64,000 nucleotides of DNA from Flaviaesturariibacter aridisoli (GTDB taxonomy: Bacteria > Bacteroidota > Bacteroidia > Chitinophagales > Chitinophagaceae): NCBI RefSeq assembly GCF_004343705.1, contig NZ_SKFH01000008.1, positions 1-64,000 of the forward strand, given 5' to 3'. The translations under genes and the position numbers were made by a program. How positions within the stretch are numbered: the first letter of the stretch is position 1; each line of letters starts with the position of its first letter. The notes beneath the pieces were generated by a model. It was given only the letters and a program-made list of their open reading frames with translations. It was not told the origin of the DNA and searched no databases. Below are positions 1,652 to 21,996 of this stretch, in pieces.

Positions 1652-2935
1652 ATGTTTATTGATTTCAGTGTCAAGAATTTCCGTTCAATCAAGGACTTGC
1701 AGACGATCAGTTTCGTAGCGACGGGACTAAAAAGCCCGGAGCAATATGTAGAAGTGGATCGGAACAATATAGTTAACGAGGGCGAGTTGCGATTACTGAA
1801 AACGGTTGGGATTTATGGGGCTAATGCGTCAGGAAAGAGCAATGTGGTGCTAGCATTAGATCGATTCATGGAAGCTATTTGGAGCGAGGCGAGCACTGAA
1901 TCAAATCTGGACGAATTATTTCAGCCTTTTCTTTTTCAAACTGACAGGGAGAATACGGATATTTTTTTCCAAGTTAATTTTCTACTCGAAGGGAAAAAGT
2001 ATAGATACGGGTTCACGGTTAAAAAGAATATGGAATACGATGGCGATAATAAAAATAGTCGCCATATTATTTCCAGTGAGTGGCTTTTCGGGCCGAAAGA
2101 GAAAAATGTTGTCCCTCTTTTTACAAGAAAAGGACTTGAAATCAAAAAGGATAAACTAGCGAATCATGAACGTATTCCCCCTTTGCAATATCCGCACACT
2201 CTTTTTCTGACTCATGCTTCTGCGTTTGATCGTGAGAGTATTTGTACGGAAGTGAGAGAATTTCTCAGACTCTACACTTTATCGAATGTCAACTTCAAGG
2301 AGCTAGCGCTCTTCCGAAGGAGTGCATTAAATCTTATTGAAGATGAGGGACGGAAGGAACCATTTCTTGCGATGATGTCAGCCTTCGGACTGCCTTACGA
2401 CGATGTTATCGTGGAGCGTGGTGGCGATGATGATTCTAAGGTTGTGTCGTTGGATAAGATTTTTCTAACTCGAAATGTGGTTGCTTCGGATGGTAAGGTC
2501 TATCCGGTAAAATTGAATTTAGGAACAACCGAGTCGGAGGGCACTCGTAAGCTTTTCGATTTATTAGGGCTGATTTATCGCGCTTTTGATTCTGTCGATC
2601 CAGCCATGTTTATTTTGGATGAGATCGATAGCAATTTCCATCCTAGCCTTTTGATTCATCTTCTAAAGATGTTCAACAATCCTGAGATAAATAAGAGTAA
2701 TTCTCAGTTGTTATTCACAAGTCATGATACAAACTTGATGTCGCCATCAATTATGCGTAGGGATCAATTCTTCTTTGCGGAAAAGCTGGATGAGGCAACG
2801 AAGGTTTTTAGTCTGTCCGACTTAAGGGGTATTCGAAATGATGCGGATTTCGCCCGTATGTATCTTTCTGGACTGTTGGGGGCAAAGCCAATTTTGCACG
2901 ACTATAAATTTATTGATAGCGATGGAAGTAATTGA
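1652..2935 (+). CDS. AAA_21-type ATPase (AbiLi-like abortive-infection ATPase)
   Basis: N-terminal MFIDFSVKNFRSIKD..IYGANASGKSN Walker A typical of the AAA_21/AAA_15 SMC-like ATPase family. Low-GC gene in high-GC genome. Overlaps downstream RloB-like gene. Confidence 0.85.
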   Translation: MFIDFSVKNFRSIKDLQTISFVATGLKSPEQYVEVDRNNIVNEGELRLLKTVGIYGANASGKSNVVLALDRFMEAIWSEASTESNLDELFQPFLFQTDRENTDIFFQVNFLLEGKKYRYGFTVKKNMEYDGDNKNSRHIISSEWLFGPKEKNVVPLFTRKGLEIKKDKLANHERIPPLQYPHTLFLTHASAFDRESICTEVREFLRLYTLSNVNFKELALFRRSALNLIEDEGRKEPFLAMMSAFGLPYDDVIVERGGDDDSKVVSLDKIFLTRNVVASDGKVYPVKLNLGTTESEGTRKLFDLLGLIYRAFDSVDPAMFILDEIDSNFHPSLLIHLLKMFNNPEINKSNSQLLFTSHDTNLMSPSIMRRDQFFFAEKLDEATKVFSLSDLRGIRNDADFARMYLSGLLGAKPILHDYKFIDSDGSN

Positions 2936-3671
2936 ACCTTGGGATCTACAGGCTGATTCAGTTAGAAGTTCGGATACTGTTAATAATGTTATCATTTTCT
3001 GTGAAGATGATGCCGTTGAGCCAACTTACTTTCAGGACTTTGGTACCCCTAATTTGCATGTCAGTATTAATAGGAATTACAAGCAGCATCACTTTCATGT
3101 AGATGCCGTTGTAGAACATTTTCGGGCAATAGGAATGTTGGAGTTTGTAGACGGTGTAGAACGTTTGAAAATTGATGAAGGGAGTTATGTGTGGTGTGTT
3201 TTCGATCGAGATAAAGCCCCGGATAAAGCCGACGCGGCTTTCAATTTATCTATAAGGAATGCGGAAGATATGGGCGTTCGAGTTGCTTGGAGCAATGATA
3301 ATTTCGAGCTTTGGCTCCTACTACATTTTGAAAATGTTCCTTTGGATAATCCAACTTTTGAACATAGGGATACTTATTATGGTCGTTTGACTGAAATCGT
3401 TGCTGAAGGGCCAGCTGTTAATTCTGCACATCAGGCAATACTAAATCAAATTGCAGCTGGCGCTCCAACGTACAGTTATTACAATTGGATGAAGAGTGAG
3501 TCAAATTTTAAAAATGTTACTAGACATTTATTAACGGGTCTCACATCCGATGCCATACAACGGGCAAGGGCCTTACACGATCATTTCTCAACGCCAGCAA
3601 GACCACCGCACCAAATGATGCCGTGCACGCTGGTCTATCAATTGGTAGAGCAATTACTGAGCCTGCAATAA
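2922..3671 (+). CDS. RloB-like / Toprim-like protein (AbiLii-like)
   Basis: Internal ATG overlapping stop of upstream ATPase by 14 bp. VIIFCEDDAVEP and VWCVFDRD acidic motifs typical of RloB (pfam13707) Toprim-like partners of AAA_21 ATPases. Low GC. Confidence 0.7.
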   Translation: MEVIEPWDLQADSVRSSDTVNNVIIFCEDDAVEPTYFQDFGTPNLHVSINRNYKQHHFHVDAVVEHFRAIGMLEFVDGVERLKIDEGSYVWCVFDRDKAPDKADAAFNLSIRNAEDMGVRVAWSNDNFELWLLLHFENVPLDNPTFEHRDTYYGRLTEIVAEGPAVNSAHQAILNQIAAGAPTYSYYNWMKSESNFKNVTRHLLTGLTSDAIQRARALHDHFSTPARPPHQMMPCTLVYQLVEQLLSLQ

Positions 3672-3683
3672 TAACTTGTAAGC

Positions 3684-4088
3684 ATGAGGCAGGCACTCAC
3701 CTTCCGCCCCCGCTACTTCCTCCTCGCCCTCCTCCTCTTCCTCATCGAAGTACTCATCGCCCTGTACGTCAACGACTGGCTCATCCGCCCCTATGGCGGC
3801 GACTACCTCGTGGTGACCCTGCTCTACTGCGGGCTGCGGGCATTCGTCAACGTGACGCCGTGGAAGGGCGCGCTCGCCGTGCTGCTGTTTGCCTACGCCA
3901 TCGAAACAGCGCAGTATTTCGAGCTCGTGCGGCACCTGGGTCTTTCCCATAACCGCGTGGCCCGCACCGTTATCGGTACCGGCTTCGAATGGAAGGACCT
4001 GCTGGCGTATACGCTGGGCATCATCACGGTGCTGCTGCTGGAATACAGAGTGCCCGTCACCCTTCGGCTGCGCTCAGGGCGACAGTAA
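3684..4088 (+). CDS. DUF2809-like small membrane protein
   Basis: 134 aa, 3-4 TM segments, ALYVNDWLIRPYGGDYLVV motif reminiscent of DUF2809. GC back to genome level. Confidence 0.5.
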   Translation: MRQALTFRPRYFLLALLLFLIEVLIALYVNDWLIRPYGGDYLVVTLLYCGLRAFVNVTPWKGALAVLLFAYAIETAQYFELVRHLGLSHNRVARTVIGTGFEWKDLLAYTLGIITVLLLEYRVPVTLRLRSGRQ

Positions 4089-4190: not shown

Positions 4191-6164
4191 ATGAACAAAC
4201 GCTTTCTTGCCCTCGCGGCCCTGCTCTGGTCGGCCGTTGCCCTGGCCCAGGATCCGGATACGGCCGCACCCGCTGCCGCCGCACCCTCGCGCTACGACCA
4301 CCATGCCGTCTTCACCCCCCATTTCTATCCCTGGCCCGGCAACGAGGTACGCTCCGCTTCCGGCGCGCCCGGACCGAAGTACTGGCAAAACCGCGCCGAC
4401 TACAACATCGGCGTGACCCTCGACACCGCCCGTCATTCGGTGGGCGGCTCGGCCACGATCACGTATACCAACAATAGTCCGGACGCGCTGCCCTTTCTCT
4501 GGCTGCAGCTCGATCAGAACATCTACCAGGCCGGCTCCCGCGCCACCGCCACCACCACGCAGGCCGGCGGCCGCTGGGCCAACCCCGCCTTCACCGCCGG
4601 CGATTCGCTGCTGAGCGTGCAGCTGGATATGGGCGGACAAAAAGGAACGCCGCAATACAGCATCACCGATACCCGCATGCAGGTGTTCCTGCCGCAGCCG
4701 CTGGCGCCCGGCGCCAAGCTGAGCCTGACGGTATCCTACAACTTCAGCATCCCCGAGCGCGGCACCGACCGCATGGGCCGCATGCGCACCAGCAATGGCT
4801 GGATCTACGCCATTGCCCAGTGGTTTCCCCGCATGGCGGTTTACGACGACATCTACGGCTGGAACACGCTGCCCTACCTCGGCGCCGGTGAGTTCTACCT
4901 CGAATACGGCGACATCACCTACAGCATCACGGCGCCGTCCAACCTCATCGTGGCCGGCTCGGGCACGCTGCTCAACGAAAGCGAAGTGCTCACCGCCGAG
5001 CAGGTGGCCCGCCTCGCGCAGGCCCGCAATTCGGACAAGACCGTCGCCATCCGCGCCGCCAAGGAAGTGACCAGCAAAAGCTCGCGCCCCACGGGTGGCT
5101 CGCTGACCTGGCGCTTCCGCATCGATAACGCCCGCGACGCGGCCTGGACCGCCTCGCGCGCTTTCGTGTGGGACGCCGCCCGCATCAACCTGCCTTCGGG
5201 CAAGAAGGCCCTGGCCCAGAGCGTGTACCCCGTGGAAAGCATCCGCAAGGACGGCTGGCAGCGCGGCACCGAGTTCACCAAGGCTTCGATCGAATACTAC
5301 TCCAACCAGTGGTTCGAGTTTCCCTACCCCGTGGCTACCAACGTGGCCTGCAACGTAGCCGGCATGGAATACCCCGGCATCGTATTCTGCAGCGCCGGCG
5401 ACTCGGGCGGCGACCTCTGGGGCGTAACGGACCACGAGTTCGGCCATACCTGGTTCCCGATGATCGTGGGTTCCAACGAGCGCAAGTATGCCTGGATGGA
5501 CGAAGGCTTCAACACCTTCATCAACGACGGCTCCACGAAAGCCTTCAACAAGGGTGAATTCGCCGGCACCGCGATCGGCTCCGGCGACGAGATGAACCAG
5601 TACATTTTCAGCGGCCATATGGACCCGCTGTGGACGGTGCCCGACGTGGTGCAGCAGTCGAATCTGGGCATCACGGCCTACTTCAAGCCGGGGATGATGC
5701 TGACGGCGCTGCGCGAGGTGGTGCTCGGCCCCGAGCGCTTCGACCGCGCCTTCCGCACCTACGTCGCGCGTTGGGCCTTCAAGCACCCCACCCCCTGGGA
5801 TTTCTTCCATACGATGGAGAACGTGAGCGGTGAAGACCTCGGCTGGTTCTGGCGCGGCTGGGTGTTCGACAACTGGCAGCTCGACCAGGCCGTGACCGGC
5901 GTCAAGTACAACAGCAACGACCCGTCGAAAGGCGCCTCCATCCAGATCGAGAACCGCGGCGAGATGGCCATGCCGGTGCCGGTGCTGGTCAAGGAAAGCA
6001 ACGGCAAGACTCATCGCCTCACCCTGCCCGTGGAAGTATGGCAGCGCGGCGGCAAGTGGGCCTTCACCGTACCCAGCACGAGCAACATCACCGAGGTCAC
6101 CATCGACCCCGACAAGAAGCTGCCGGATGTGAACCGCAAAAACAACAACCTGAAGCCGTTCTGA
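4191..6164 (+). CDS. secreted M1-family zinc metallopeptidase (aminopeptidase N-like)
   Basis: Signal peptide [19 protein letters not shown]; HEFGHTWF..18..WMDEGFNTF gluzincin HEXXH-E motif. Confidence 0.85.
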
Positions 6165-12797: not shown

Positions 12798-13409
12798 ATG
12801 GATACCCCAGCTCCCGCTCTTCCCGGTTACCGCGTTCACGAATACCGCCTTGTGCTGGCGCTGCCCGATCCGCTCCGGGAGCGCATTGCGCATTTACGCG
12901 AACGCCTCCACGAGCGCCACCGCGTGAAACCGCCCTTCGACCTGCAGCCTTCGCTGACGGTGCTGCAATGTCATGCCTTCGAAAAATCCGAGCCCCGCTT
13001 TCTTGAGCGCCTGCAGGAAGTAGCACGCGGGCTCAGTCCCTTCAAGGTGGAACTCGAAAACTTCGCGGCCTACCCCTCGCACACGATCTACATCCACGTG
13101 CCCACGCGCCGTCCCTTCCAGGAGCTGTCGCGGGAATTGAAAAAGCTGCAGTGGCTGATGAACATTCCCGGGCAGGAGCCGCACTTCATCACGGAGCCCG
13201 AGCTCATCCTGGCGCAGCGTCTGAAGCCGATGCCCTTTATCGGGATGTGGATGGAATGCGAGCACAGCGAATTCAGCGGCCGCTTTATGGCCGACCACCT
13301 GGTGCTGCTGCGCCGCCATGCCGGCATCGGTCACTGGGAAGTGCTGCGCCGCCTCGACCTGCTGGAATTGCCCTCAGCGGTCAAACAGGGATGCCTGTTC
13401 GGAGGATGA
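12798..13409 (+). CDS. hypothetical protein, possibly 2H-phosphoesterase/LigT-like fold
   Basis: 203 aa; weak resemblance to 2'-5' RNA ligase superfamily proteins. No clean HxT/S dyad seen. Confidence 0.35.
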   Translation: MDTPAPALPGYRVHEYRLVLALPDPLRERIAHLRERLHERHRVKPPFDLQPSLTVLQCHAFEKSEPRFLERLQEVARGLSPFKVELENFAAYPSHTIYIHVPTRRPFQELSRELKKLQWLMNIPGQEPHFITEPELILAQRLKPMPFIGMWMECEHSEFSGRFMADHLVLLRRHAGIGHWEVLRRLDLLELPSAVKQGCLFGG

Positions 13410-14117
13410 ACCCAGCTCGGGGTAATCTACCGGCGCCAGCGTAGCCTCGTGGTTGCTGTCGGCACCCGGCCGGCCGATGGAGCGATCGATCGTGTGGGCC
13501 TGCAGGAAGCCTTCGGGGCAGGGGCAAAGCAACTCCTGGACCTGCTCCTTCGCCAGCTCGGGGTCGAGCCAGCGGCTCCAGGCTTCACGCGGGAGGATCA
13601 CCGGCATCCGCTGCTTCGTGTTGTGGATGCGGGCCATAAAGGGATTGGCCTCGGTGGTGAGAATGGAAAAGGTGCGGTACAATTCACCCGTTTCCGGCTC
13701 GGTCCAATGGCTGTAGATGCCGGCGAACGCAAAGAGCTCGTCGCCCTGGGCGCGAACGAAATGCGGGTACTTCTTTTTCTGGTATTCCATCCATTCGAAG
13801 AAGCCGTCGGCGAGCACCAGGCAGCGCCGCTTGGGGATATAATTCCGGAAGGACGGTTTCTCGAAGACCGTCTCCGCCTTCGCGTTGAGCGTCTGGGTCC
13901 TCAGCTTTTGCGCCTCGGCCAGTCCGGCCGTCCAGTGCGGGATGAGGCCCCAGCTATAGGCCTGCACTTTGCCCGGTTCCTGCGACGTGATCACCGGCAT
14001 CAGCGGAAAGGTAAAACCGTTGGCGTGGTACACGGGCTCGAAGGGCATCTCCCATTCCGCGGCGATCAGCTGGAGTACCTGCGCCTGCTTCTTCGTAATT
14101 GAATAATGATAACACAT
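13374..14117 (-). CDS. SOS response-associated peptidase (SRAP/YedK, abasic-site processing protein)
   Basis: N-terminal MCYHYS (catalytic Cys2). Family-typical WGLIPHW and FAGIY motifs. Confidence 0.85.
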   Translation of the reverse strand: MCYHYSITKKQAQVLQLIAAEWEMPFEPVYHANGFTFPLMPVITSQEPGKVQAYSWGLIPHWTAGLAEAQKLRTQTLNAKAETVFEKPSFRNYIPKRRCLVLADGFFEWMEYQKKKYPHFVRAQGDELFAFAGIYSHWTEPETGELYRTFSILTTEANPFMARIHNTKQRMPVILPREAWSRWLDPELAKEQVQELLCPCPEGFLQAHTIDRSIGRPGADSNHEATLAPVDYPELGSSSEQASLFDR

Positions 14118-14140: not shown

Positions 14141-15256
14141 ATGACACGAAACAACCTCCTCCATACGAAGAACGATCTCGGCAAGATTGCACAAAACGAA
14201 ACCGAAGATCCGTATGTCAAAGGGCGCGGTGCCCAGTTCAATACCGCCAACCGCTTCGACCGGACGCAGTACAGCACCGCGCACGTGGAAGGCATCGATG
14301 AATGGGTGGAAGCATCGGTACAAACCCAGTTCATCGAAGTGCAGGCCAAAACGCTGGTCAACAAGGTGGAGAGCCCCGACGTGGGCATGCTCTACAGCAT
14401 GAATCCTTACCAGGGTTGCGAGCACGGATGCATCTACTGCTATGCGCGCAATTCCTTTGAATACCTCGGCTTCAGCGCAGGCCTCGACTTTGAAAGCAAG
14501 ATCCACGTGAAGCAAAATGCCGCGCAACTGCTGCGGCAGTTCCTGCAACACCCGAAGTGGACCTGCGTACCTCTGAGCCTCAGCGGCAATACCGACTGCT
14601 ACCAGCCCGCCGAGCGCCGCTTTCGCCTCACACGCAGCTTGCTGGAAGTGTGCCTCGAATTCAACCAGCCGGTGGGCATCATCACCAAGAACGCCGGTGT
14701 GCTGCGCGATGCCGACCTGTTGCAGCAACTTGCTGAACGAAGGCTCGTGTCGGTGATCATGACCATCACCTCGCTGCAGGAAGACCTCCGCCGCGTGCTC
14801 GAGCCGCGCACCACCACCGGCGCGCAGCGGTTGCGCACCATCGAAGGCCTCAGTAAAATCGGGGTGCAAACGGGGGTGATGCTCGGCCCGATGATCCCCG
14901 GGCTCAACGAGCAGGAAATGCCCGCCATCCTGAAAGCCGCAAGCGAAGTGGGCGCCACCTTTTCCGCCTATACGTTCATCCGGCTCAATGGCGCCGTGAA
15001 GCTGCTTTTCCACGACTGGCTCTACAAGAATTTTCCCGACCGTGCCGACAAGGTGTGGCACTTCATCGAGTCGGCGCACGGCGGCCGCGTCAACGACAGC
15101 GAGTTTGGAAGGCGCATGCGCGGCGAGGGGAATATCGCGCAACTCGTGGCCGATCAATACAAAGCTTATACGCGGAAATACGGCTTTCACCACGAACGCC
15201 TGGGCCTCGATTGTACGCAGTTTCGCCGGCCCGGCGAGCAGATGAAGCTTTTCTGA
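14141..15256 (+). CDS. radical SAM protein, PA0069/SplB-like (COG1533 DNA-repair photolyase-like)
   Basis: CEHGCIYCYA CxxxCxxC radical SAM motif. Family signature residues follow. Confidence 0.8.
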   Translation: MTRNNLLHTKNDLGKIAQNETEDPYVKGRGAQFNTANRFDRTQYSTAHVEGIDEWVEASVQTQFIEVQAKTLVNKVESPDVGMLYSMNPYQGCEHGCIYCYARNSFEYLGFSAGLDFESKIHVKQNAAQLLRQFLQHPKWTCVPLSLSGNTDCYQPAERRFRLTRSLLEVCLEFNQPVGIITKNAGVLRDADLLQQLAERRLVSVIMTITSLQEDLRRVLEPRTTTGAQRLRTIEGLSKIGVQTGVMLGPMIPGLNEQEMPAILKAASEVGATFSAYTFIRLNGAVKLLFHDWLYKNFPDRADKVWHFIESAHGGRVNDSEFGRRMRGEGNIAQLVADQYKAYTRKYGFHHERLGLDCTQFRRPGEQMKLF

Positions 15257-15969: not shown

Positions 15970-16165
15970 AGCGTCCCTACTTTGCAGCGCAAACAAAAAC
16001 GCATACATCGTGAACCGCTATCAACTCCATACAATCGAAATGAAAAGCTTCGCACCCCTGGGTGAGAGCTTTGGCGGGGACTGTATCGCGGTCTGGTAAA
16101 AACAACTACCGAAACGCATTATACAAAACCCCGCGGCGCCTGCAGCGGGGTTTTTTCTTGTTGCT
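15970..16165 (+). ncRNA. candidate small RNA (promoter to terminator, ~170 nt), identity unknown
   Basis: TTG...TACTTTGC (TAnnTTTG box) near 15975-15997. Ends at hairpin CCCCGCGGCGCCTGCAGCGGGG + TTTTTT (16127-16165). No ORF. Confidence 0.35.
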
Positions 16166-16359
16166 GCCGCCCGGTCGAAATAAAGAAACGCGCACGCTAA
16201 AAATGAATTTGTGTAAACCGAATCGTACATCAGCCATCCAGGGACCCATAGGTCTGCCCACGGAGTTTCGCGCTGCATTCCGCAGCCTGCGCAGCCGCCT
16301 GGCCACCCTATGCCCCAACGCGGAGACCATTCCTCCTTTCTGCTAGCCGCAACGGCTTC

Positions 16360-16393
16360 GGAAGGCCCGGTCCCCGCACAGGACCGGGCTTTT
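16360..16393 (+). terminator. rho-independent terminator
   Basis: GCCCGGTCC-CCGCACA-GGACCGGGC followed by TTTTTGTT. Confidence 0.55.
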
Positions 16394-16633
16394 TGTTACG
16401 CTAAACCCGAAGCCATGAAATTTCTCCTCATCACACTCGCCATTACCGCGCTGTTCCGCTACCTGCTGCCGGAACGCACGGGAAAAACATAAGGCCCCCG
16501 GGCCAAAAAGCTTCCCCAACGGGAAGACAGGTATCCCGTCGGAGATCCAAACCAAGGTGAGGGTTTCCAACGCCCCGCAGTGCGGCCCGCATCGGTTGCC
16601 GTATGCTGTTGCCTCCGAGGCGGTACCTGCCAA

Positions 16634-16722
16634 CCACTGCCGCAAGGCAGACTCGTGTTGCGGGTTCGAATCCCGTTTCCACTTCGGGTGGAATAGCTCA
16701 ACGGTAGAGCAGGGCACTGTTA
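16634..16722 (+). ncRNA. circularly permuted tRNA-like element (T-arm / capped acceptor helix / D-arm); candidate YrlA-type Y RNA module
   Basis: GCGGG-TTCGAAT-CCCGT T-arm (16660-16676). Then TTTCCAC-TTCG(G)-GTGGAA helix with UUCG-type cap (16677-16693). Then TA-GCTC-AACGGTA-GAGC-A D-arm (16694-16711). Preceded by CTGCC-GCAA-GGCAG GNRA hairpin. No anticodon arm. Confidence 0.45.
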
Positions 16723-17013
16723 ACGCTCGATGGAGCCGGCCGCTCCCAAAACAGGCCAGCCAAATAAAAGCACGGTTCGCAAACCGGTTGTGCATCGCCG
16801 TTAGCAGCGATGATGCAGCACTCCGGTAGCAGCCTGTAGCCGGTAGGCAGCCCGGCGCCGCACGATCCGCCTCGCAAGCTTACCCGCAGCTCCAGCGCTG
16901 CGGCGCTTCCAGAGCCGCTTCACAACGCGCCCCGCTGCCGCCGTCTCCGCCGCCACCCGAGGGAAAGCGAGCCGTGCTTTTTTAAACAACTGAAACGAAT
17001 AAAAACGATAGCA

Positions 17014-18111
17014 ATGAAAAAGGTACGGATCGCTGCCGTGCAGGCAGCACTGGTTTTTCGCCACGGTGTATACCAGCGCCTCCTCACCGAGGGCGTATAC
17101 TGGCTGTGGGGCGCCGACACCGCGCAGGTGTTCGACAGGGGCCAGCCCTTTGTTCCGGGCATGGAGCTGAACCTCCTCCTGGCGCACGAAGACCTGGCCC
17201 GGGAACTGGAAGTAGTAGAAGTAGCAGGGCACGAGATCGTGCTGCAATACAGCGATGGCGTGCTGAACACCGTGCTGACGCCGGGCCGCTACGCCTTCTG
17301 GAAGGGTGTGCTGCGCTACGACTTCGTGCGGGCCGACCTCTCGAAGATCGCGATCACCGAGCCCATCGACCGCACCACGCTCGGACATCGGCTGGTGGCG
17401 CCCTTCGTGCGCAGCTACACCGTGGAAGCCTTCGAGCGCGCCGTGCTCCTTGTAGACGGCAAGTACGCCGGCCTCCTCGACAGCGGCACCTACCAGTGGT
17501 GGAAGAACGCCATCACGATCCAGGTAGCGAAGGTGGATACGCGCCTGCAGCAGCTCGAGCTGAGCGGCCAGGAGATCCTGACCCGCGACAAGGCGATGCT
17601 GCGGATCAACGCCTTTGCACAGTACGGCGTGACGGACGTGGAAAAGGCGCTCCTGCACAACAAGGAACACGAGCGGCAGCTCTACGTACAGGTGCAGCTC
17701 GCCCTCCGCGAATACATCGGCGGCTACTCCCTCGACGAGTTGCTCGAAAAGCGGGCCGACCTCGTAGAATCGGTGCTCCGCTCGGTGCAAACCGCGGCCG
17801 CAACGCTCGGTGTGGAAGTACGGCACTTCGGTATCCGCGACATCATCCTGCCGGGGGATGTAAAGGAGATCCTCAACAGCATGCTGCTGGCGGAGAAGAA
17901 AGCACAGGCCAACAGCATCATGCGCCGCGAGGAAACGGCGAGCACGCGCAGCCTGCTCAACACGGCCAAGCTGATGGAAGAAAACAGCATGCTGTTCAAA
18001 CTCAAGGAGCTCGAATACGTGGAGAAGATCGCCGACAGGATCGGCAGCCTATCGGTGAGCGGCAACAGCCAGCTCCTCGAGCAGCTGAAGGCCCTGTTCG
18101 TGCCGAAATAA
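17014..18111 (+). CDS. SPFH/band-7 (slipin/stomatin-like) domain protein
   Basis: Central SPFH-like region with long C-terminal coiled-coil. Typical stomatin-family organization. Confidence 0.75.
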   Translation: MKKVRIAAVQAALVFRHGVYQRLLTEGVYWLWGADTAQVFDRGQPFVPGMELNLLLAHEDLARELEVVEVAGHEIVLQYSDGVLNTVLTPGRYAFWKGVLRYDFVRADLSKIAITEPIDRTTLGHRLVAPFVRSYTVEAFERAVLLVDGKYAGLLDSGTYQWWKNAITIQVAKVDTRLQQLELSGQEILTRDKAMLRINAFAQYGVTDVEKALLHNKEHERQLYVQVQLALREYIGGYSLDELLEKRADLVESVLRSVQTAAATLGVEVRHFGIRDIILPGDVKEILNSMLLAEKKAQANSIMRREETASTRSLLNTAKLMEENSMLFKLKELEYVEKIADRIGSLSVSGNSQLLEQLKALFVPK

Positions 18112-18159: not shown

Positions 18160-18232
18160 TGGCCTGTAGCTCAATGGTAGAGTACGCGCCTCTTAAGCGT
18201 GGGGTTGTGGGCTCGCGTCCCACCGGGCCAAC
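18160..18232 (+). tRNA. tRNA-Lys (anticodon CTT), atypical T-loop
   Basis: Cloverleaf folds by eye: acceptor TGGCCTG/CGGGCCA, D-arm GCTC-AATGGTA-GAGT, anticodon stem CGCGC/GCGTG with loop CTCTTAA, T-stem GTGGG/CCCAC. T-loop is CTCGCGT rather than TTCRANT. Coordinates +/-1. Confidence 0.6.
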
Positions 18233-18235
18233 GAA

Positions 18236-18308
18236 GGACAAATAGCTCCAATTGGTAGAGCAGCGGATTGAAGCTCCGCCCGTGCAGGTTCGAGTCCTGC
18301 TTTGTCCA
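18236..18308 (+). tRNA. tRNA-Phe (anticodon GAA)
   Basis: GGACAAA acceptor, GCTC-CAATTGGTA-GAGC D-arm, GCGGA-TTGAAGC-TCCGC anticodon arm, GCAGG-TTCGAGT-CCTGC T-arm, TTTGTCC-A 3' end. Confidence 0.85.
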
Positions 18309-18405
18309 CTGATCAAACCGGTAGCGGACCGGGGTGCCAGGGGCACTGAAAGTCGAAAATGGATGAACCGGCCGCCGCACGGCCACAATCAAAAAGGAGG
18401 CGTTT

Positions 18406-18822
18406 ATGCTTTGGAAATTATTCGGCCGCCGGATCAAAAGCCCGGTAGGCCTCTTCAACGGACCGTTCTTCGACGTGCGCACGGCCTACGTGCTCCGTTT
18501 CGATCGCTTGCCCTCGGTAACGGGCGTGGGCGAGATCGACGGCGGCAAGGCCTACGCGCACCTGCGCGCCGCCCTTGGGCCGCGTGTGCGGAAGACCTGG
18601 CAGCACAGCTACTTCGATCGCTCGGAAGATGGCGTGCGCTTCAACGTCACGATCCTGGAGCTCGACAACCGGTCGATGCTGGAGATCGGACCCGCCTGGG
18701 TGGAAGTGTTGCACGATGGCGACTTCCACTGGGCCAACACATTGGTTACGGAGCTGGCCGCCTTTCGCGATCAGCCCAAAGAAACAAGCATCGGCTTTGC
18801 CCGCAGCAGGTCGATGAATTAA
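18406..18822 (+). CDS. hypothetical protein (138 aa)
   Basis: ORF with native codon usage, 1-bp gap to downstream AAA ATPase gene (operon-like). Confidence 0.45.
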   Translation: MLWKLFGRRIKSPVGLFNGPFFDVRTAYVLRFDRLPSVTGVGEIDGGKAYAHLRAALGPRVRKTWQHSYFDRSEDGVRFNVTILELDNRSMLEIGPAWVEVLHDGDFHWANTLVTELAAFRDQPKETSIGFARSRSMN

Positions 18823-18823
18823 A

Positions 18824-19906
18824 ATGCAGACAGACATGCAACATTTAATTGACCAGAAAACGGTCAGCATCAACGAAGCGCTGGGCGATTATTTTCCCGA
18901 CAGCCGCGCCTTTTACCTCGCGCACTTCGGGCGGATACCGAGCCGGCATTTTATTTCCGGCGTCAGCGGCGACCGACTGGTGACCGCTTTCCGAGAAGCG
19001 TTCGGGTCACTGATCGCCGACACCTACCAGAATCAGTGGTACGACGGCAAGCGCAAGCGCTACGAGCTCGACAAGACGCTTTTTGTGCTGCACAACGGTT
19101 GCGTAGTGGAGATCGCGCATTACTGCGAAATCCTGCACAACGGTAGCCAGGAAGCTTTTATAGCCGACTGCACCCGGCTGGCAGGCAAATACCGCGAACG
19201 GGAAAAGCGGCAGCCACAGGAGATCAACCTCATCGTGCGGGGCGAGTACGGACTATCGCTCAAGTCGATGGAGATCAAGCGCACGCGGCTCGACACGACG
19301 CTGTTTTACGAAGACGACTTCGCTCCCGTAGATTCCGTGATCCGGCAACGCCTGCGCCAGAAGAACGACAAGGGGATCGTGCTGCTCCACGGCCTGCCAG
19401 GGACTGGTAAGACTACGTACCTGCGCTACCTGGTAGGGCAAACCAAAAAGCGCGTGCTCTTCCTGTCGCCTTCGGTGGCGGGCAACTTGATGGATCCCGA
19501 CTTCATCGACCTGCTGGTGGACAATCCCAACACAGTGCTGGTGATCGAGGACGCAGAGAACGTGCTGATGGACCGGCGCGCCGGCCCCCATGCCGGGGTG
19601 TCGAACCTGCTCAACATCTCCGAAGGGCTGCTGGCCGACTTCCTGAACGTGCAGCTCATCTGCACCTTCAACAGCCCGGTGGCGCTCATCGACGCGGCGC
19701 TGTTGCGGAAGGGTCGCCTCATTGCCCGCTACGAATTCGGGAAGCTGGGCGTGGACAAGGCGCAGCGGCTCAGCGATGCGCTCGGCTTCGGCAGCCGTAT
19801 CACGCGGCCCATGACGCTGGCGGAGATCACGACGCAACATGAGCCCGCGCCACCCGAAATGCGTACGGAGGTGATCGGCTTTAGGCGGTTCGCGCTCGAG
19901 AACTAA
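18824..19906 (+). CDS. AAA+ ATPase (classical AAA domain) with ~180-aa N-terminal domain of unknown function
   Basis: GIVLLHGLPGTGKTT Walker A, VLVIEDAE Walker B, LLRKGRL arginine-finger/sensor region. Confidence 0.75.
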   Translation: MQTDMQHLIDQKTVSINEALGDYFPDSRAFYLAHFGRIPSRHFISGVSGDRLVTAFREAFGSLIADTYQNQWYDGKRKRYELDKTLFVLHNGCVVEIAHYCEILHNGSQEAFIADCTRLAGKYREREKRQPQEINLIVRGEYGLSLKSMEIKRTRLDTTLFYEDDFAPVDSVIRQRLRQKNDKGIVLLHGLPGTGKTTYLRYLVGQTKKRVLFLSPSVAGNLMDPDFIDLLVDNPNTVLVIEDAENVLMDRRAGPHAGVSNLLNISEGLLADFLNVQLICTFNSPVALIDAALLRKGRLIARYEFGKLGVDKAQRLSDALGFGSRITRPMTLAEITTQHEPAPPEMRTEVIGFRRFALEN

Positions 19907-19987: not shown

Positions 19988-20470
19988 ATGGAACAAAACC
20001 AATGGCGGCGGCTGGATGGCAGGACCATCCAGTTGCCCATCGATGAAGAAGTGCGGCGGGCCCTGCTCCGCGAAGGAGCTGCCGGCCACGAACTCAGCGT
20101 GAGCATCGGCTCCGACAGCCAGGTGAAGGGCGGCACGATCGTGTTTGCCACGGTGATCGTATTTCTGCGGAAAGGCCGTGGTGGCTTCTTCTTTATTCAG
20201 AGCGACAAAGCCGAGCGGCGCATGACCGTCAAGGAGCGGATGCTCGAAGAGGTAACCCGGGGCATCGAAACGGCATACGAATTGGCGCCCGTCTTTGCGA
20301 AATACGGCGTGCCGCTTGAAGTGCATGCCGATATCAACCCGGACCCGAAGTTCAAAAGCAACGAGGCTTTCCGGGAGGCAATGGGATACATCATGGGCAT
20401 GGGCTTTTCCTTCCGGGCCAAGCCGAACGCCTTTGCCGGCTCCAGTTGCGCAAACAAAGTAGTACAATAA
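19988..20470 (+). CDS. DUF458/YkuK-like (RNase H-like fold) protein
   Basis: IGSDSQ, HADINPD and KPNAFAGSSCANK motifs recalled from the B. subtilis YkuK family. Confidence 0.5.
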   Translation: MEQNQWRRLDGRTIQLPIDEEVRRALLREGAAGHELSVSIGSDSQVKGGTIVFATVIVFLRKGRGGFFFIQSDKAERRMTVKERMLEEVTRGIETAYELAPVFAKYGVPLEVHADINPDPKFKSNEAFREAMGYIMGMGFSFRAKPNAFAGSSCANKVVQ

Positions 20471-20541: not shown

Positions 20542-21996
20542 ATGGCAAAATTGAAAATGACCGGAAAGGAGCTTCGCGGCATCGGTTACCCAGAGTCGCC
20601 GGTGATCTCGATGGCCATGGGGCTGATGGAAAAGCACTACAAGCATTCCTCGCTCGATGAGGCGTTGAAGATCCTTTCGAATATCAAAGAAGCGCCGGCC
20701 GACTACCTGGAGCACCCGGTGCTGGGCAAGATCGCGGCGCAGCTGCTCCCGAAGCCGGCAGCGGAAGGCGCCGAAGTGTCGCTCAATTCGAGCGGCATTA
20801 CGTTCTCCGTGTTCGGATCCGAAGGCATCGAGGCCGGGGCGCTGCACCAGATGTACACCGCGGCCAAGCTGCCCGTGGCGGTGGCGGGCGCCCTCATGCC
20901 CGACGCGCATTCGGGCTACGGCCTGCCTATCGGGGGCGTGCTGGCCACCGACAACGCCGTGATCCCCTATGGCGTGGGGGTAGACATCGGCTGCCGGATG
21001 TGCCTCTCCGTGTTCGACTTGCCCGAAAAGGACCTCGAGGCGAAGACCGGGTTTTTCGCACGCACCATCCAGGAGAATACCGTCTTTGGTTCGGGCGGTC
21101 AGCTGGCCCGGGCCGCCGACCACGAGGTGCTGCACAGCAACCTGTTCAACGAGATCGGCCTGCTCAAAGGGCTGCACGGCAAGGCCTGGAAGCAACTCGG
21201 CACTTCGGGCTCGGGCAACCACTTCGTGGAGTTCGGGGCGGTCACCGTAGACGAGTTCGACCCGGTGCTGGGCGTACCGGCGGGCACCTACCTGGGCCTG
21301 CTGTCGCACTCGGGCTCGCGGGCGCTGGGGGCAAACATCGCCAACCACTACACGAAGCTGGCCAAACAAAAGCGGCGCCTGCCGGCCGAAGCCTCGAACC
21401 TGGCCTGGCTGGGACTGGATGAAGCAGAAGGCATGGAGTACTGGCTGGCGATGAACCTGGCTGGCGACTATGCCGCGGCATGCCATCATGTGATCCATGA
21501 AAAAGTGGCGCGGGCCCTGGGCCGCCGGCCGCTGCGGCGGGTGGAGAACCACCACAATTTCGCCTGGAAGGAGCCGTGGGAGGGGCGCGAGGTGATCGTG
21601 CACCGGAAAGGCGCCACCCCGGCGGGCGCGGGCGTGCTGGGCATCATCCCCGGCTCGATGACCGCCCCCGGCTTTATTGTAAAGGGCAAAGGCGAGCCGG
21701 CCTCCGTGCATTCGGCTTCCCACGGCGCCGGCCGGCGGATGAGCCGCACCGCGGCCCTGCAGTCGATCTCCCACGCCGCGCTGCAGGAGCAGCTGCGCGC
21801 GCAGGGAGTGACCCTGCTCGGGGGCGGGCTCGACGAGGCACCGATGGCGTATAAAGACATCCACGCCGTGATGGCCGCCCAGGAGGCGCTGGTGGAAGTG
21901 CTGGGAACCTTTCAGCCGCGCATCGTGCAGATGGATGGTACGCCGCCGAAGCCGTGGATGAAGAAGGGAAAGGGGGAGGAAGTGCCGGGAGCGTAA
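20542..21996 (+). CDS. rtcB: RNA-splicing ligase RtcB
   Basis: MPDAHSGYGLPIGGV, GSGNHF and ASHGAGR RtcB metal/GMP-binding motifs. 484 aa. Confidence 0.9.
   Translation: MAKLKMTGKELRGIGYPESPVISMAMGLMEKHYKHSSLDEALKILSNIKEAPADYLEHPVLGKIAAQLLPKPAAEGAEVSLNSSGITFSVFGSEGIEAGALHQMYTAAKLPVAVAGALMPDAHSGYGLPIGGVLATDNAVIPYGVGVDIGCRMCLSVFDLPEKDLEAKTGFFARTIQENTVFGSGGQLARAADHEVLHSNLFNEIGLLKGLHGKAWKQLGTSGSGNHFVEFGAVTVDEFDPVLGVPAGTYLGLLSHSGSRALGANIANHYTKLAKQKRRLPAEASNLAWLGLDEAEGMEYWLAMNLAGDYAAACHHVIHEKVARALGRRPLRRVENHHNFAWKEPWEGREVIVHRKGATPAGAGVLGIIPGSMTAPGFIVKGKGEPASVHSASHGAGRRMSRTAALQSISHAALQEQLRAQGVTLLGGGLDEAPMAYKDIHAVMAAQEALVEVLGTFQPRIVQMDGTPPKPWMKKGKGEEVPGA

Follow-up and report, generated by a model that had tools for sequence, protein, structure and literature searches.

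Two described kinds of bacterial RNA come closest to the element reported here. YrlA-type Y RNAs are defined by a GNCGAAN0-1G motif near the 5′ end, by T, acceptor-like (AS), D and often V stem-loops, by a terminal stem, and by a position no more than 4 kb from rsr (PMC4201824), and covariation of the Levitt 15-48 pair has been reported for them also (PMC4201824). YrlA genes occasionally adjoin Band-7 genes (10.1101/312249), and the tRNA mimic of YrlA has been suggested to act as a competitive inhibitor of anticodon nuclease (Hughes et al., PMC7790460). The other is a tRNA-like non-coding RNA (ncRNA) linked to Band-7 genes beside RtcB, the ‘b7a-tRNA’, which according to the account in 10.1101/312249 was predicted and is called unvalidated; that account and the one in PMC13404743 credit it to Burroughs and Aravind (2016). 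Here we analyse 64,000 nucleotides of the Flaviaesturariibacter aridisoli genome (contig NZ_SKFH01000008.1, positions 1 to 64,000), the whole of which we call the window. An earlier note, made from the letters alone, had described a tRNA-like element at 16600-16770 and proposed it as a YrlA-type Y RNA. We find that this tRNA-like piece is one domain, the middle one, of a predicted conserved structured RNA of ~480 nt (16503-16983, + strand), which precedes a gene for a slipin. The kind of system is known from computational prediction; the RNA is much larger than YrlA or a simple tRNA-like gene, and its build is more elaborate.

A structured RNA family upstream of slipin

Relatives were collected by a one-genome-per-species scan with a slipin alignment, which found at least 586, and the best 80 loci were used; these cover Chitinophagales, Cytophagales, Flavobacteriales and others. 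At the loci of close slipin homologues synteny is kept, and the whole intergenic region 5′ of slipin is conserved, beyond the tRNA-like piece. Nearly all 80 loci carry one or two GGUUCGA T-loops 350-550 nt 5′ of the slipin start codon. Two covariance models were built with the window excluded: R1 (25 sequences) comprises the second of two tandem tRNA-like modules found in most relatives (module 2), its anticodon arm and stem 1 of a pseudoknot, and R2 (29 sequences) comprises the 5′ domain of the RNA. Each gave one full-length match on the + strand of the 64-kb window, R1 at 16655-16759 (60.4 bits, E 1.6e-13) and R2 at 16503-16619 (78.2 bits, E 6.8e-15). Matches to R1 lie 5′ of slipin on the same strand at 75 of the 80 species loci, and R2 gives exactly one match per locus, always 5′ of slipin.

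Standard pairs fill 96.8% of cells in the R1 alignment (62 best matches), with changes on both sides in 21 of 23 pairs (336 such changes, vs 83 ± 9 in shuffles), and 91.6% of cells are paired in the R2 alignment (66 sequences; 385 both-side changes vs 113 in shuffles). Both alignments were fitted to their own models, which biases them toward the modelled structures; the helices are nevertheless secure, because controls with slid partners fail and many pair types occur. When the R1 structure is slid by 1-3 columns just 41-51% of cells pair, and 30-51% do so for R1 and R2 together. The folding energy of the core is by itself unremarkable (z = −0.38 vs shuffles), no better than that of shuffled sequences, and the structural case therefore rests on comparison rather than on thermodynamics.

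The reciprocal test began from the RNA: a scan of metagenome contigs with the pattern of the 5′ domain found at least 80 loci, and 24 of those listed were confirmed by R2. Among the metagenome matches listed, all 16 contigs with at least 700 nt downstream encode a slipin on the same strand, 343-535 nt further on. The other 56 of the 80 listed pattern loci had no R2 confirmation and were discarded as chance matches. A viral origin was likewise rejected: the seven pattern matches in IMG/VR were all chance matches, and none matched R2. At gathering thresholds Rfam finds nothing except tRNAs in 11 relative loci, and relaxed searches give YrlA only 33-44 bits on the modules; the family, which has more than 90 members and is backed by covariation, is therefore missing from Rfam 15. 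Comparison across its members demonstrates a conserved RNA family, with its secondary structure and part of the tertiary structure, the strand on which it lies and a constant place 5′ of slipin.

Architecture of the RNA and its tRNA mimic

The predicted features are given below from 5′ to 3′, with their evidence in brackets.

16503-16619, + strand: 5′ domain (R2 model, RNAalifold)
16511-16515 with 16522-16526, + strand: P1 hairpin, CTTCC/GGAAG
~16548-16556 with 16606-16611 (P2), 16557-16578 (P3) and 16580-16604 (P4, AGUGCGG...CCGUAUG), + strand: three-way junction
16620-16659, + strand: linker 5′ of the mimic, including the GNRA hairpin CTGCC-GCAA-GGCAG at 16637-16650 (sequence)
16660-16676, + strand: T-arm, GCGGG/TTCGAAT/CCCGT (read from the sequence; R1 alignment)
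16677-16693, + strand: sealed acceptor-like hairpin of 6 bp, TTCCAC/TTCGG/GTGGAA (read from the sequence; R1 alignment)
16694-16711, + strand: U8-A9 (TA, 16694-16695), D-arm GCTC/AACGGTA/GAGC (16696-16710) and A26 (sequence; R1 alignment)
16712-16716 with 16724-16728, + strand: stem of the anticodon-like arm, GGGCA/CGCUC, with one A.C mismatch (R1 alignment)
16717-16723, + strand: anticodon-like loop of 7 nt, CUGUUAA, with the ‘anticodon’ GUU
16732-16757, + strand: H-type pseudoknot, whose stem 1 pairs GGAGC (16732-16736) with GCUCC (16742-16746)
16738-16741 with 16754-16757, + strand: stem 2 of the pseudoknot, GGCC with GGCC; A-rich loop 3, CAAAACA
16766-16983, + strand: closed 3′ domain of ~220 nt (minimum free energy fold and relatives)
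16766-16780 with 16967-16981: 15-bp long-range closing helix of the 3′ domain, AAAAGCACGGUUCGC with GCGAGCCGUGCUUUU, followed by a U tract to 16983

The element at the centre of this RNA mimics a tRNA in circularly permuted order, its acceptor helix being sealed. The T-arm, closed acceptor hairpin and D-arm claimed in the earlier note can be read directly from the sequence; the R1 match, and the match to the Rfam YrlA model described below, lie beyond chance, and the R1 alignment bears out the permuted and sealed arrangement. Since the sealed helix leaves no CCA end to charge, the mimic would not be aminoacylatable. Across the family the T-arm helix is paired in 100% of cells, with covariation in three of its five pairs, and the acceptor-like hairpin in 98.8% of cells, with covariation in all four modelled pairs. 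Contacts of the tRNA core are kept as well: U8 is conserved in 61 of the 62 sequences, A14 in every one of them, and G18G19 and the T-loop are also retained. The Levitt 15-48 pair, here between the nucleotide 5′ of the T stem and the second D-loop nucleotide, is U-A in 32, C-G in 21 and another combination in 9 of the 62 sequences; in the window U16659 occupies tRNA position 48.

The earlier note had seen no anticodon arm. One is in fact present (16712-16728), and the H-type pseudoknot that follows it had also been missed. All five stem pairs of the arm covary in the family, and the loop is 7 nt long, with U33 in 50, R37 in 54 and A38 in 50 of 58 sequences. Its central triplet takes 22 forms, GUU (11) and UUU (7) being the commonest, and the stems remain constant (CUACA/UGUAG or AAGCA/UGCUU) despite the changing triplet. 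Because stems and U33/R37 frame are kept while the triplet varies, the loop is held in the shape of a tRNA anticodon loop, with a triplet that is free or diversifying. The GNRA hairpin of the earlier note does exist at 16637-16650; it is an insertion in the alignment, not present at that site in the 31 aligned relatives.

In the family, the 5′ part begins with a hairpin followed by a three-way junction with the conserved strands AAACCRG/CUGUU and AGUGCAG/CUGUAUG, and RNAalifold detects compensatory changes in 21 of the 33 pairs of the 5′ domain. Most relatives then carry two tandem mimics. Module 1 consists of T-arm, closed acceptor-like stem and D-arm, and is joined by a linker of 11-15 nt to module 2, which has the same three elements and, after them, a 5-bp stem with a 7-nt anticodon-like loop; the window has a single module, as do about 7 of 54 loci from several lineages. 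The pseudoknot lies 3′ of module 2, with the family consensus GAAG-CACC-CUUC-AAAAAA-GGUG. Its stem 1 covaries across the family, and 52 of the 62 sequences have its stem 2, in more than 12 complementary sets of pairs (among them CACC/GGUG, CGCC/GGCG, CAGC/GCUG, CAUC/GAUG and UGCC/GGCA). The helix that closes the 3′ domain, (U)AAAGCNGG.../...CCNGCUUUA, is found again in relatives with compensatory changes, and within their 3′ domains UCCG is invariant and inner long-range pairs covary. The RNA ends 30 nt 5′ of the slipin ATG (17014) in the window; in relatives, the U-rich tail of the closing helix lies 25-100 nt, and the pseudoknot 225-806 nt, before that codon.

Slipin and the surrounding genes

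The SPFH protein encoded next to the RNA (365 aa) matches the ‘slipin family protein’ of Flaviaesturariibacter aridisoli (Chitinophagaceae) at 100% identity. It has no transmembrane helix (maximum 19-residue hydropathy 0.93), and its sequence is closest to stomatin, HflK and QmcA, which have been solved as large rings or cages. In its AF2 model (pLDDT 78.7) the N-terminal part consists of three beta repeats of five strands each, at about residues 2-41, 65-108 and 132-175, and the SPFH domain and long helices follow. Foldseek aligns this model with stomatin/HflK over ~240 columns and with major vault protein (MVP) over 420-473 columns; the Pfam Vault/MVP families have no match on 41 slipins. 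Bacterial MVP-like proteins with Band-7 domains have been reported from Bacteroidetes (10.1101/872010). The gene and those that follow it in the window are as follows.

17014-18111, + strand: slipin gene (SPFH/Band-7; Pfam Band_7, E 3e-27)
18160-18232, + strand: tRNA-Lys(CUU), directly after slipin (ARAGORN; Rfam tRNA, 59.4 bits)
18236-18309, + strand: tRNA-Phe(GAA) (ARAGORN; Rfam tRNA, 60.9 bits)
18406-18822, + strand: p138, an open reading frame (ORF) of 138 aa, paralogue of the N-terminal domain of the AAA protein (tblastn)
18824-19906, + strand: AAA ATPase (Pfam)
19988-20470, + strand: DUF458 RNase-H-like protein (Pfam)
20542-21996, + strand: RtcB RNA ligase (Pfam)

Pfam thus agrees with the earlier note that rtcB, DUF458 and AAA ATPase genes lie downstream and that this is an RtcB repair locus. 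The usual order in the 80 loci, by tblastn and on one strand, is tRNA array, DUF458, AAA, RNA, slipin, RtcB. RtcB lies downstream of slipin in 48 of the 80, and 37 of the 80 have same-strand arrays of 5-16 tRNA genes upstream of DUF458/AAA. The window and F. amylovorans depart from this in that AAA and DUF458 have moved downstream of slipin, with the RNA-then-slipin order retained. The commonest array tRNAs are Phe-GAA, His-GUG, Lys-UUU, Asn-GUU, Asp-GUC, Arg-ACG, Ile-GAU and Gln-UUG, and the arrays are rich in His, Lys, Asn, Asp, Arg, Gln and Glu tRNAs. Many such tRNAs are targets of known anticodon nucleases such as PrrC and colicins E5 and D. In cyanobacteria, long tRNA arrays are co-regulated with rtcB (PMC8421152). 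Junctions between adjacent array tRNAs match the permuted model R1 weakly (25-50 bits), a hint that the mimic may derive from a tRNA-tRNA junction.

The stand-alone p138 ORF sits between the tRNA pair and the AAA gene, and its tblastn matches in other loci (24-53% identity) overlap the N-terminus of the AAA protein. It has no match in Pfam, NCBIfam or PADLOC, and PADLOC and NCBIfam return nothing for the AAA, DUF458 or p138 proteins.

Comparison with described RNAs

Like the b7a-tRNA, the RNA of the window is a tRNA-like ncRNA that adjoins a Band-7/SPFH (MVP-like) gene, as it does in 75 of the 80 Bacteroidota genomes and in all 16 metagenome contigs listed, with RtcB in the neighbourhood (20542-21996). 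As summarised in these secondary accounts, b7a-tRNA was proposed as a scaffold cofactor in the manner of a Ro-associated Y RNA, and is said to strongly resemble an authentic tRNA; the mimic described here differs in being permuted, sealed and one domain of a larger RNA. We consider that the RNA very probably belongs to this Band-7-associated tRNA-like class as those accounts present it.

With relaxed thresholds, YrlA (RF02553) is the best Rfam family at the mimic (16633-16737, 42.4 bits, E 7.6e-8 in a 1-kb search). The covariance-model check proposed in the earlier note therefore gave the expected family as best relaxed match, but below its gathering score of 69, which neither the window nor the relatives reach (33-44 bits; none in 11 relatives). 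The mimic shares with YrlA the order of T-arm, sealed acceptor-like stem-loop and D-arm, the tRNA tertiary contacts (T-loop, D-loop GG, U8-A14 and Levitt pair) and the setting in an RtcB locus. Unlike YrlA, it lacks a Ro/Rsr-binding stem, the place of which is taken by the anticodon arm. No terminal stem of the YrlA type is formed by the RNA’s own ends, the outer stems being mostly non-pairs or gaps in the cmscan alignment, and the Rsr-contact motif GNCGAAN0-1G has no match in 16500-16990. In agreement with the earlier note, no rsr/TROVE gene was identified within 5 kb or, by Pfam, in the 40 large ORFs of the window. The flanks of the mimic belong to other conserved domains, and the RNA is ~480 nt long vs the 80-130 nt expected for a Y RNA; in the family the mimic is usually tandem-duplicated and embedded in an RNA of ~0.5 kb. 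The assignment to YrlA-type Y RNAs made in the earlier note was accordingly given up, as score, Rsr motif, terminal stem and rsr neighbour all fail and an anticodon arm is present.

The same note’s view that the element is not a tRNA was upheld, and tmRNA and att-site remnant, two outcomes that the note had named as refuting its proposal, were rejected as well. ARAGORN finds only tRNA-Lys and tRNA-Phe (18160-18309) in the window, with no tRNA or tmRNA at the mimic, and the Rfam scan at gathering thresholds has no match in the window but those two tRNAs. At the mimic the tRNA model RF00005 reaches 15.1 bits (16687-16748) vs a gathering score of 29, a search of 16100-17100 at E up to 10 brings up no tmRNA family, and the acceptor is sealed. 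As to an att site or direct repeat, the mimic segment has no second copy in the window. An origin of the D and anticodon half by exchange with neighbouring array tRNAs was also rejected, since the anticodon is the same in 4 of 44 best matches and similarity is low.

Other comparisons are looser. The vault particle consists of an MVP cage, TEP1 (a TROVE protein) and vault RNA; MVP has nine repeats vs three in slipin, the window has no TROVE protein, the RNA here is a tRNA mimic, and Pfam does not support a sequence relation to the MVP repeats. Viral tRNA-like structures and the tRNA-like domain of tmRNA likewise combine tRNA mimicry with an H-type pseudoknot, but keep an open, chargeable acceptor end, whereas the mimic here is sealed. 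GOLLD and ROOL are, like this RNA, large multi-domain bacterial RNAs beside tRNA genes; this one differs from them in architecture and in its fixed gene partner, and neither GOLLD (RF02032) nor ROOL gives a model match in the window. A GOLLD-like RNA does occur at one related locus (L083, Maribacter sp., 4711-5185, + strand; 128.6 bits vs a gathering score of 150, E ~1e-33, full model), between an array of 14 tRNA genes (3072-4034) and the slipin-linked RNA (5397-5640). None was seen in L007, L060, L061, L066 or L079.

Proposed role and alternative explanations

We propose that the RNA is the non-coding part of a Bacteroidota tRNA-damage-response island and acts as slipin’s RNA partner, an explanation to which, as a whole, we assign a probability of roughly 0.55. 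The island would consist of the tRNA array, DUF458, the AAA ATPase, the ~480-nt RNA, slipin and RtcB. The RNA would be co-transcribed with slipin and would partner a soluble, oligomeric, stomatin/vault-like slipin, by analogy with Y RNA and Ro60 or vault RNA and the vault. Its non-tRNA domains would anchor it to slipin. The mimic would present a tRNA body and an anticodon loop, with the contacts of the tRNA elbow kept, and may either bring in repair enzymes that recognise tRNAs (RtcB, DUF458) or compete with tRNAs for anticodon nucleases. We infer the binding to slipin and the role as handle or decoy; for a role in trans, as partner in a ribonucleoprotein (RNP), we see the chances as evenly balanced.

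Several points weigh against this proposal. We infer both the transcription and the ends of the 16503-16983 RNA. The Bacteroidetes −7 box TAnnTTTG was seen upstream of the RNA at 1 of 65 loci, and a sigma-70 scan found none there; because no promoter motif is seen, the RNA may exist solely within a long operon transcript. At many loci the conserved RNA sequence begins right at the AAA stop codon, which, with the lack of a promoter motif, suggests co-transcription with the flanking genes. The variable ‘anticodon’ could merely be unconstrained, and the D and anticodon halves do not copy those of neighbouring tRNAs. The b7a class is known through secondary descriptions, and since the match is drawn from these, the identity with it is presumptive. 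Finally, the invariant order of RNA then slipin and the U-rich tail suit a leader acting in cis at least as well as a partner acting in trans.

Such a leader, which we hold to be unlikely though tenable, would be a 5′ sensor of the slipin(-rtcB) message, with the closing helix and U tract as terminator or attenuator and the mimic as bait: cleavage of the anticodon loop, or binding of a factor, would refold the 3′ domain and turn on slipin and rtcB, in place of the enterobacterial sensor made of RtcR and tRNA fragments. RNA followed by slipin is the sole order seen (75 of 75 loci; 16 of 16 contigs listed), even where other genes have moved (the window and L006), and because closing helix and U tail lie so close before the ATG there is little room for a separate slipin promoter. 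The anticodon loop has the tRNA-like U33/R37 frame and free triplet that would fit a bait, and the Salmonella rtc operon is induced by damaged tRNAs (PMC7790460). A terminator stem enclosing ~190 nt would however be atypical, and a scan with a terminator consensus does not call it; the large covarying 5′ and 3′ domains exceed the needs of a simple attenuator; and no mutually exclusive alternative pairings were found. The cis-leader and RNP readings are compatible and can coexist. A more ambitious version, which we regard as speculative and rather improbable, would make the RNA an undescribed class of large (0.45-0.6 kb), ornate RNAs that carry, as a built-in sensor of anticodon nucleases or a decoy for them, one or two permuted, sealed mimics whose anticodon loops are live. 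A mimic that is cleaved or occupied would then gate the expression or assembly of a slipin-cage ‘mini-vault’ holding RtcB-dependent tRNA repair, and, if true, Y RNA, vault RNA and tRNA-damage signalling would be joined in one bacterial system.

The remaining explanations fare far worse. A genuine YrlA-type Y RNA, serving an Rsr/Ro60 protein encoded elsewhere in the genome, would account for the best Rfam match, for the T/AS/D order and Levitt covariation as in YrlA and for an RtcB locus of the typical kind, but it is highly improbable given the score below gathering, the absence of GNCGAAN0-1G, of a terminal Ro-binding stem and of TROVE in the 40 window ORFs, and a constant neighbour that is slipin rather than rsr in more than 90 loci. 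We give still less credence to a functionless, decayed remnant of tandem tRNAs, or to an att site or piece of a tRNA that a mobile element left behind. The weak R1 matches at array tRNA junctions would suit it, but the covariation already contradicts it: the element is conserved over Chitinophagales, Cytophagales and Flavobacteriales, and each helix, as well as one tertiary pair, shows compensatory changes. The mimic moreover lies between conserved domains of its own that are not tRNA-like, and has no direct repeat in the window. A permuted or two-piece tmRNA, or a piece of a one-piece tmRNA, is next to negligible: the tRNA-like domain, the pseudoknot with its A-rich loop and weak Rfam tmRNA matches (18.6-21.9 bits) to module 1 of two relatives recall one, but ARAGORN and Rfam are negative in the window, the sealed acceptor has no CCA end and there is no tag reading frame.

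In bacterial RtcB repair loci a scaffold protein, either Ro60 or a Band-7/MVP-like protein, is paired with a tRNA-like RNA. The analysis gives this RNA a defined architecture, an invariant protein neighbour and frequent companion genes (tRNA array, DUF458, AAA, RtcB), and the ideas of scaffold, decoy and sensor thereby become directly testable in culturable Bacteroidota. The family would warrant a new Rfam entry and a corrected annotation of the locus.

Further observations at the locus

The region before slipin, which the earlier note had called gene-free, is not simply so. Directly 5′ of the P1 hairpin lies an ORF of 25 codons (16416-16493, + strand; MKFLLITLAITALFRYLLPERTGKT), encoding a hydrophobic helix and a basic tail, which is kept at the protein level in the three related loci L001, L002 and L004 despite many nucleotide changes. 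In L001 and L002 it is preceded by the Shine-Dalgarno sequence AAGGAGGT, and among the loci read it was seen only in Flaviaesturariibacter-like ones. Its product could be a small membrane peptide, a toxin or a leader peptide. A 94-codon ORF further upstream (16062-16346) was considered as a relative of the genes of 98-99 aa found at that place in L001 and L002, and proved unrelated.

Many Chitinophagaceae loci have, from the AAA stop codon on and 40-60 nt 5′ of P1, the conserved element GTTCTTTAAAATATTG followed by a small GTTGA...TCAAC hairpin (for example L012, ~5300-5350); the window is without it. Between the 3′ end of the RNA and the slipin start, L007 (5900-5990) and L027 (5930-5990) contain repeats of ATCTGTG(G/T), which the window also lacks and which may be an operator.

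Upstream, the window encodes a 2′-5′ RNA ligase/LigT-like protein (12798-13409), an SRAP protein (13374-14117, minus strand) and a PA0069-family radical SAM protein (14141-15256). LigT-like, SRAP and radical SAM genes also flank L004, and LigT-like and radical SAM genes occur in L013, L015, L041, L048 and L138; because they recur in this way, the repair island may extend further than drawn above. Far from the RNA, at 1652-2935 (+ strand), an ORF encodes an AAA_21 (AbiEii-type) ATPase (E 3.5e-27), which may belong to an unrelated element of the defence or toxin-antitoxin kind.

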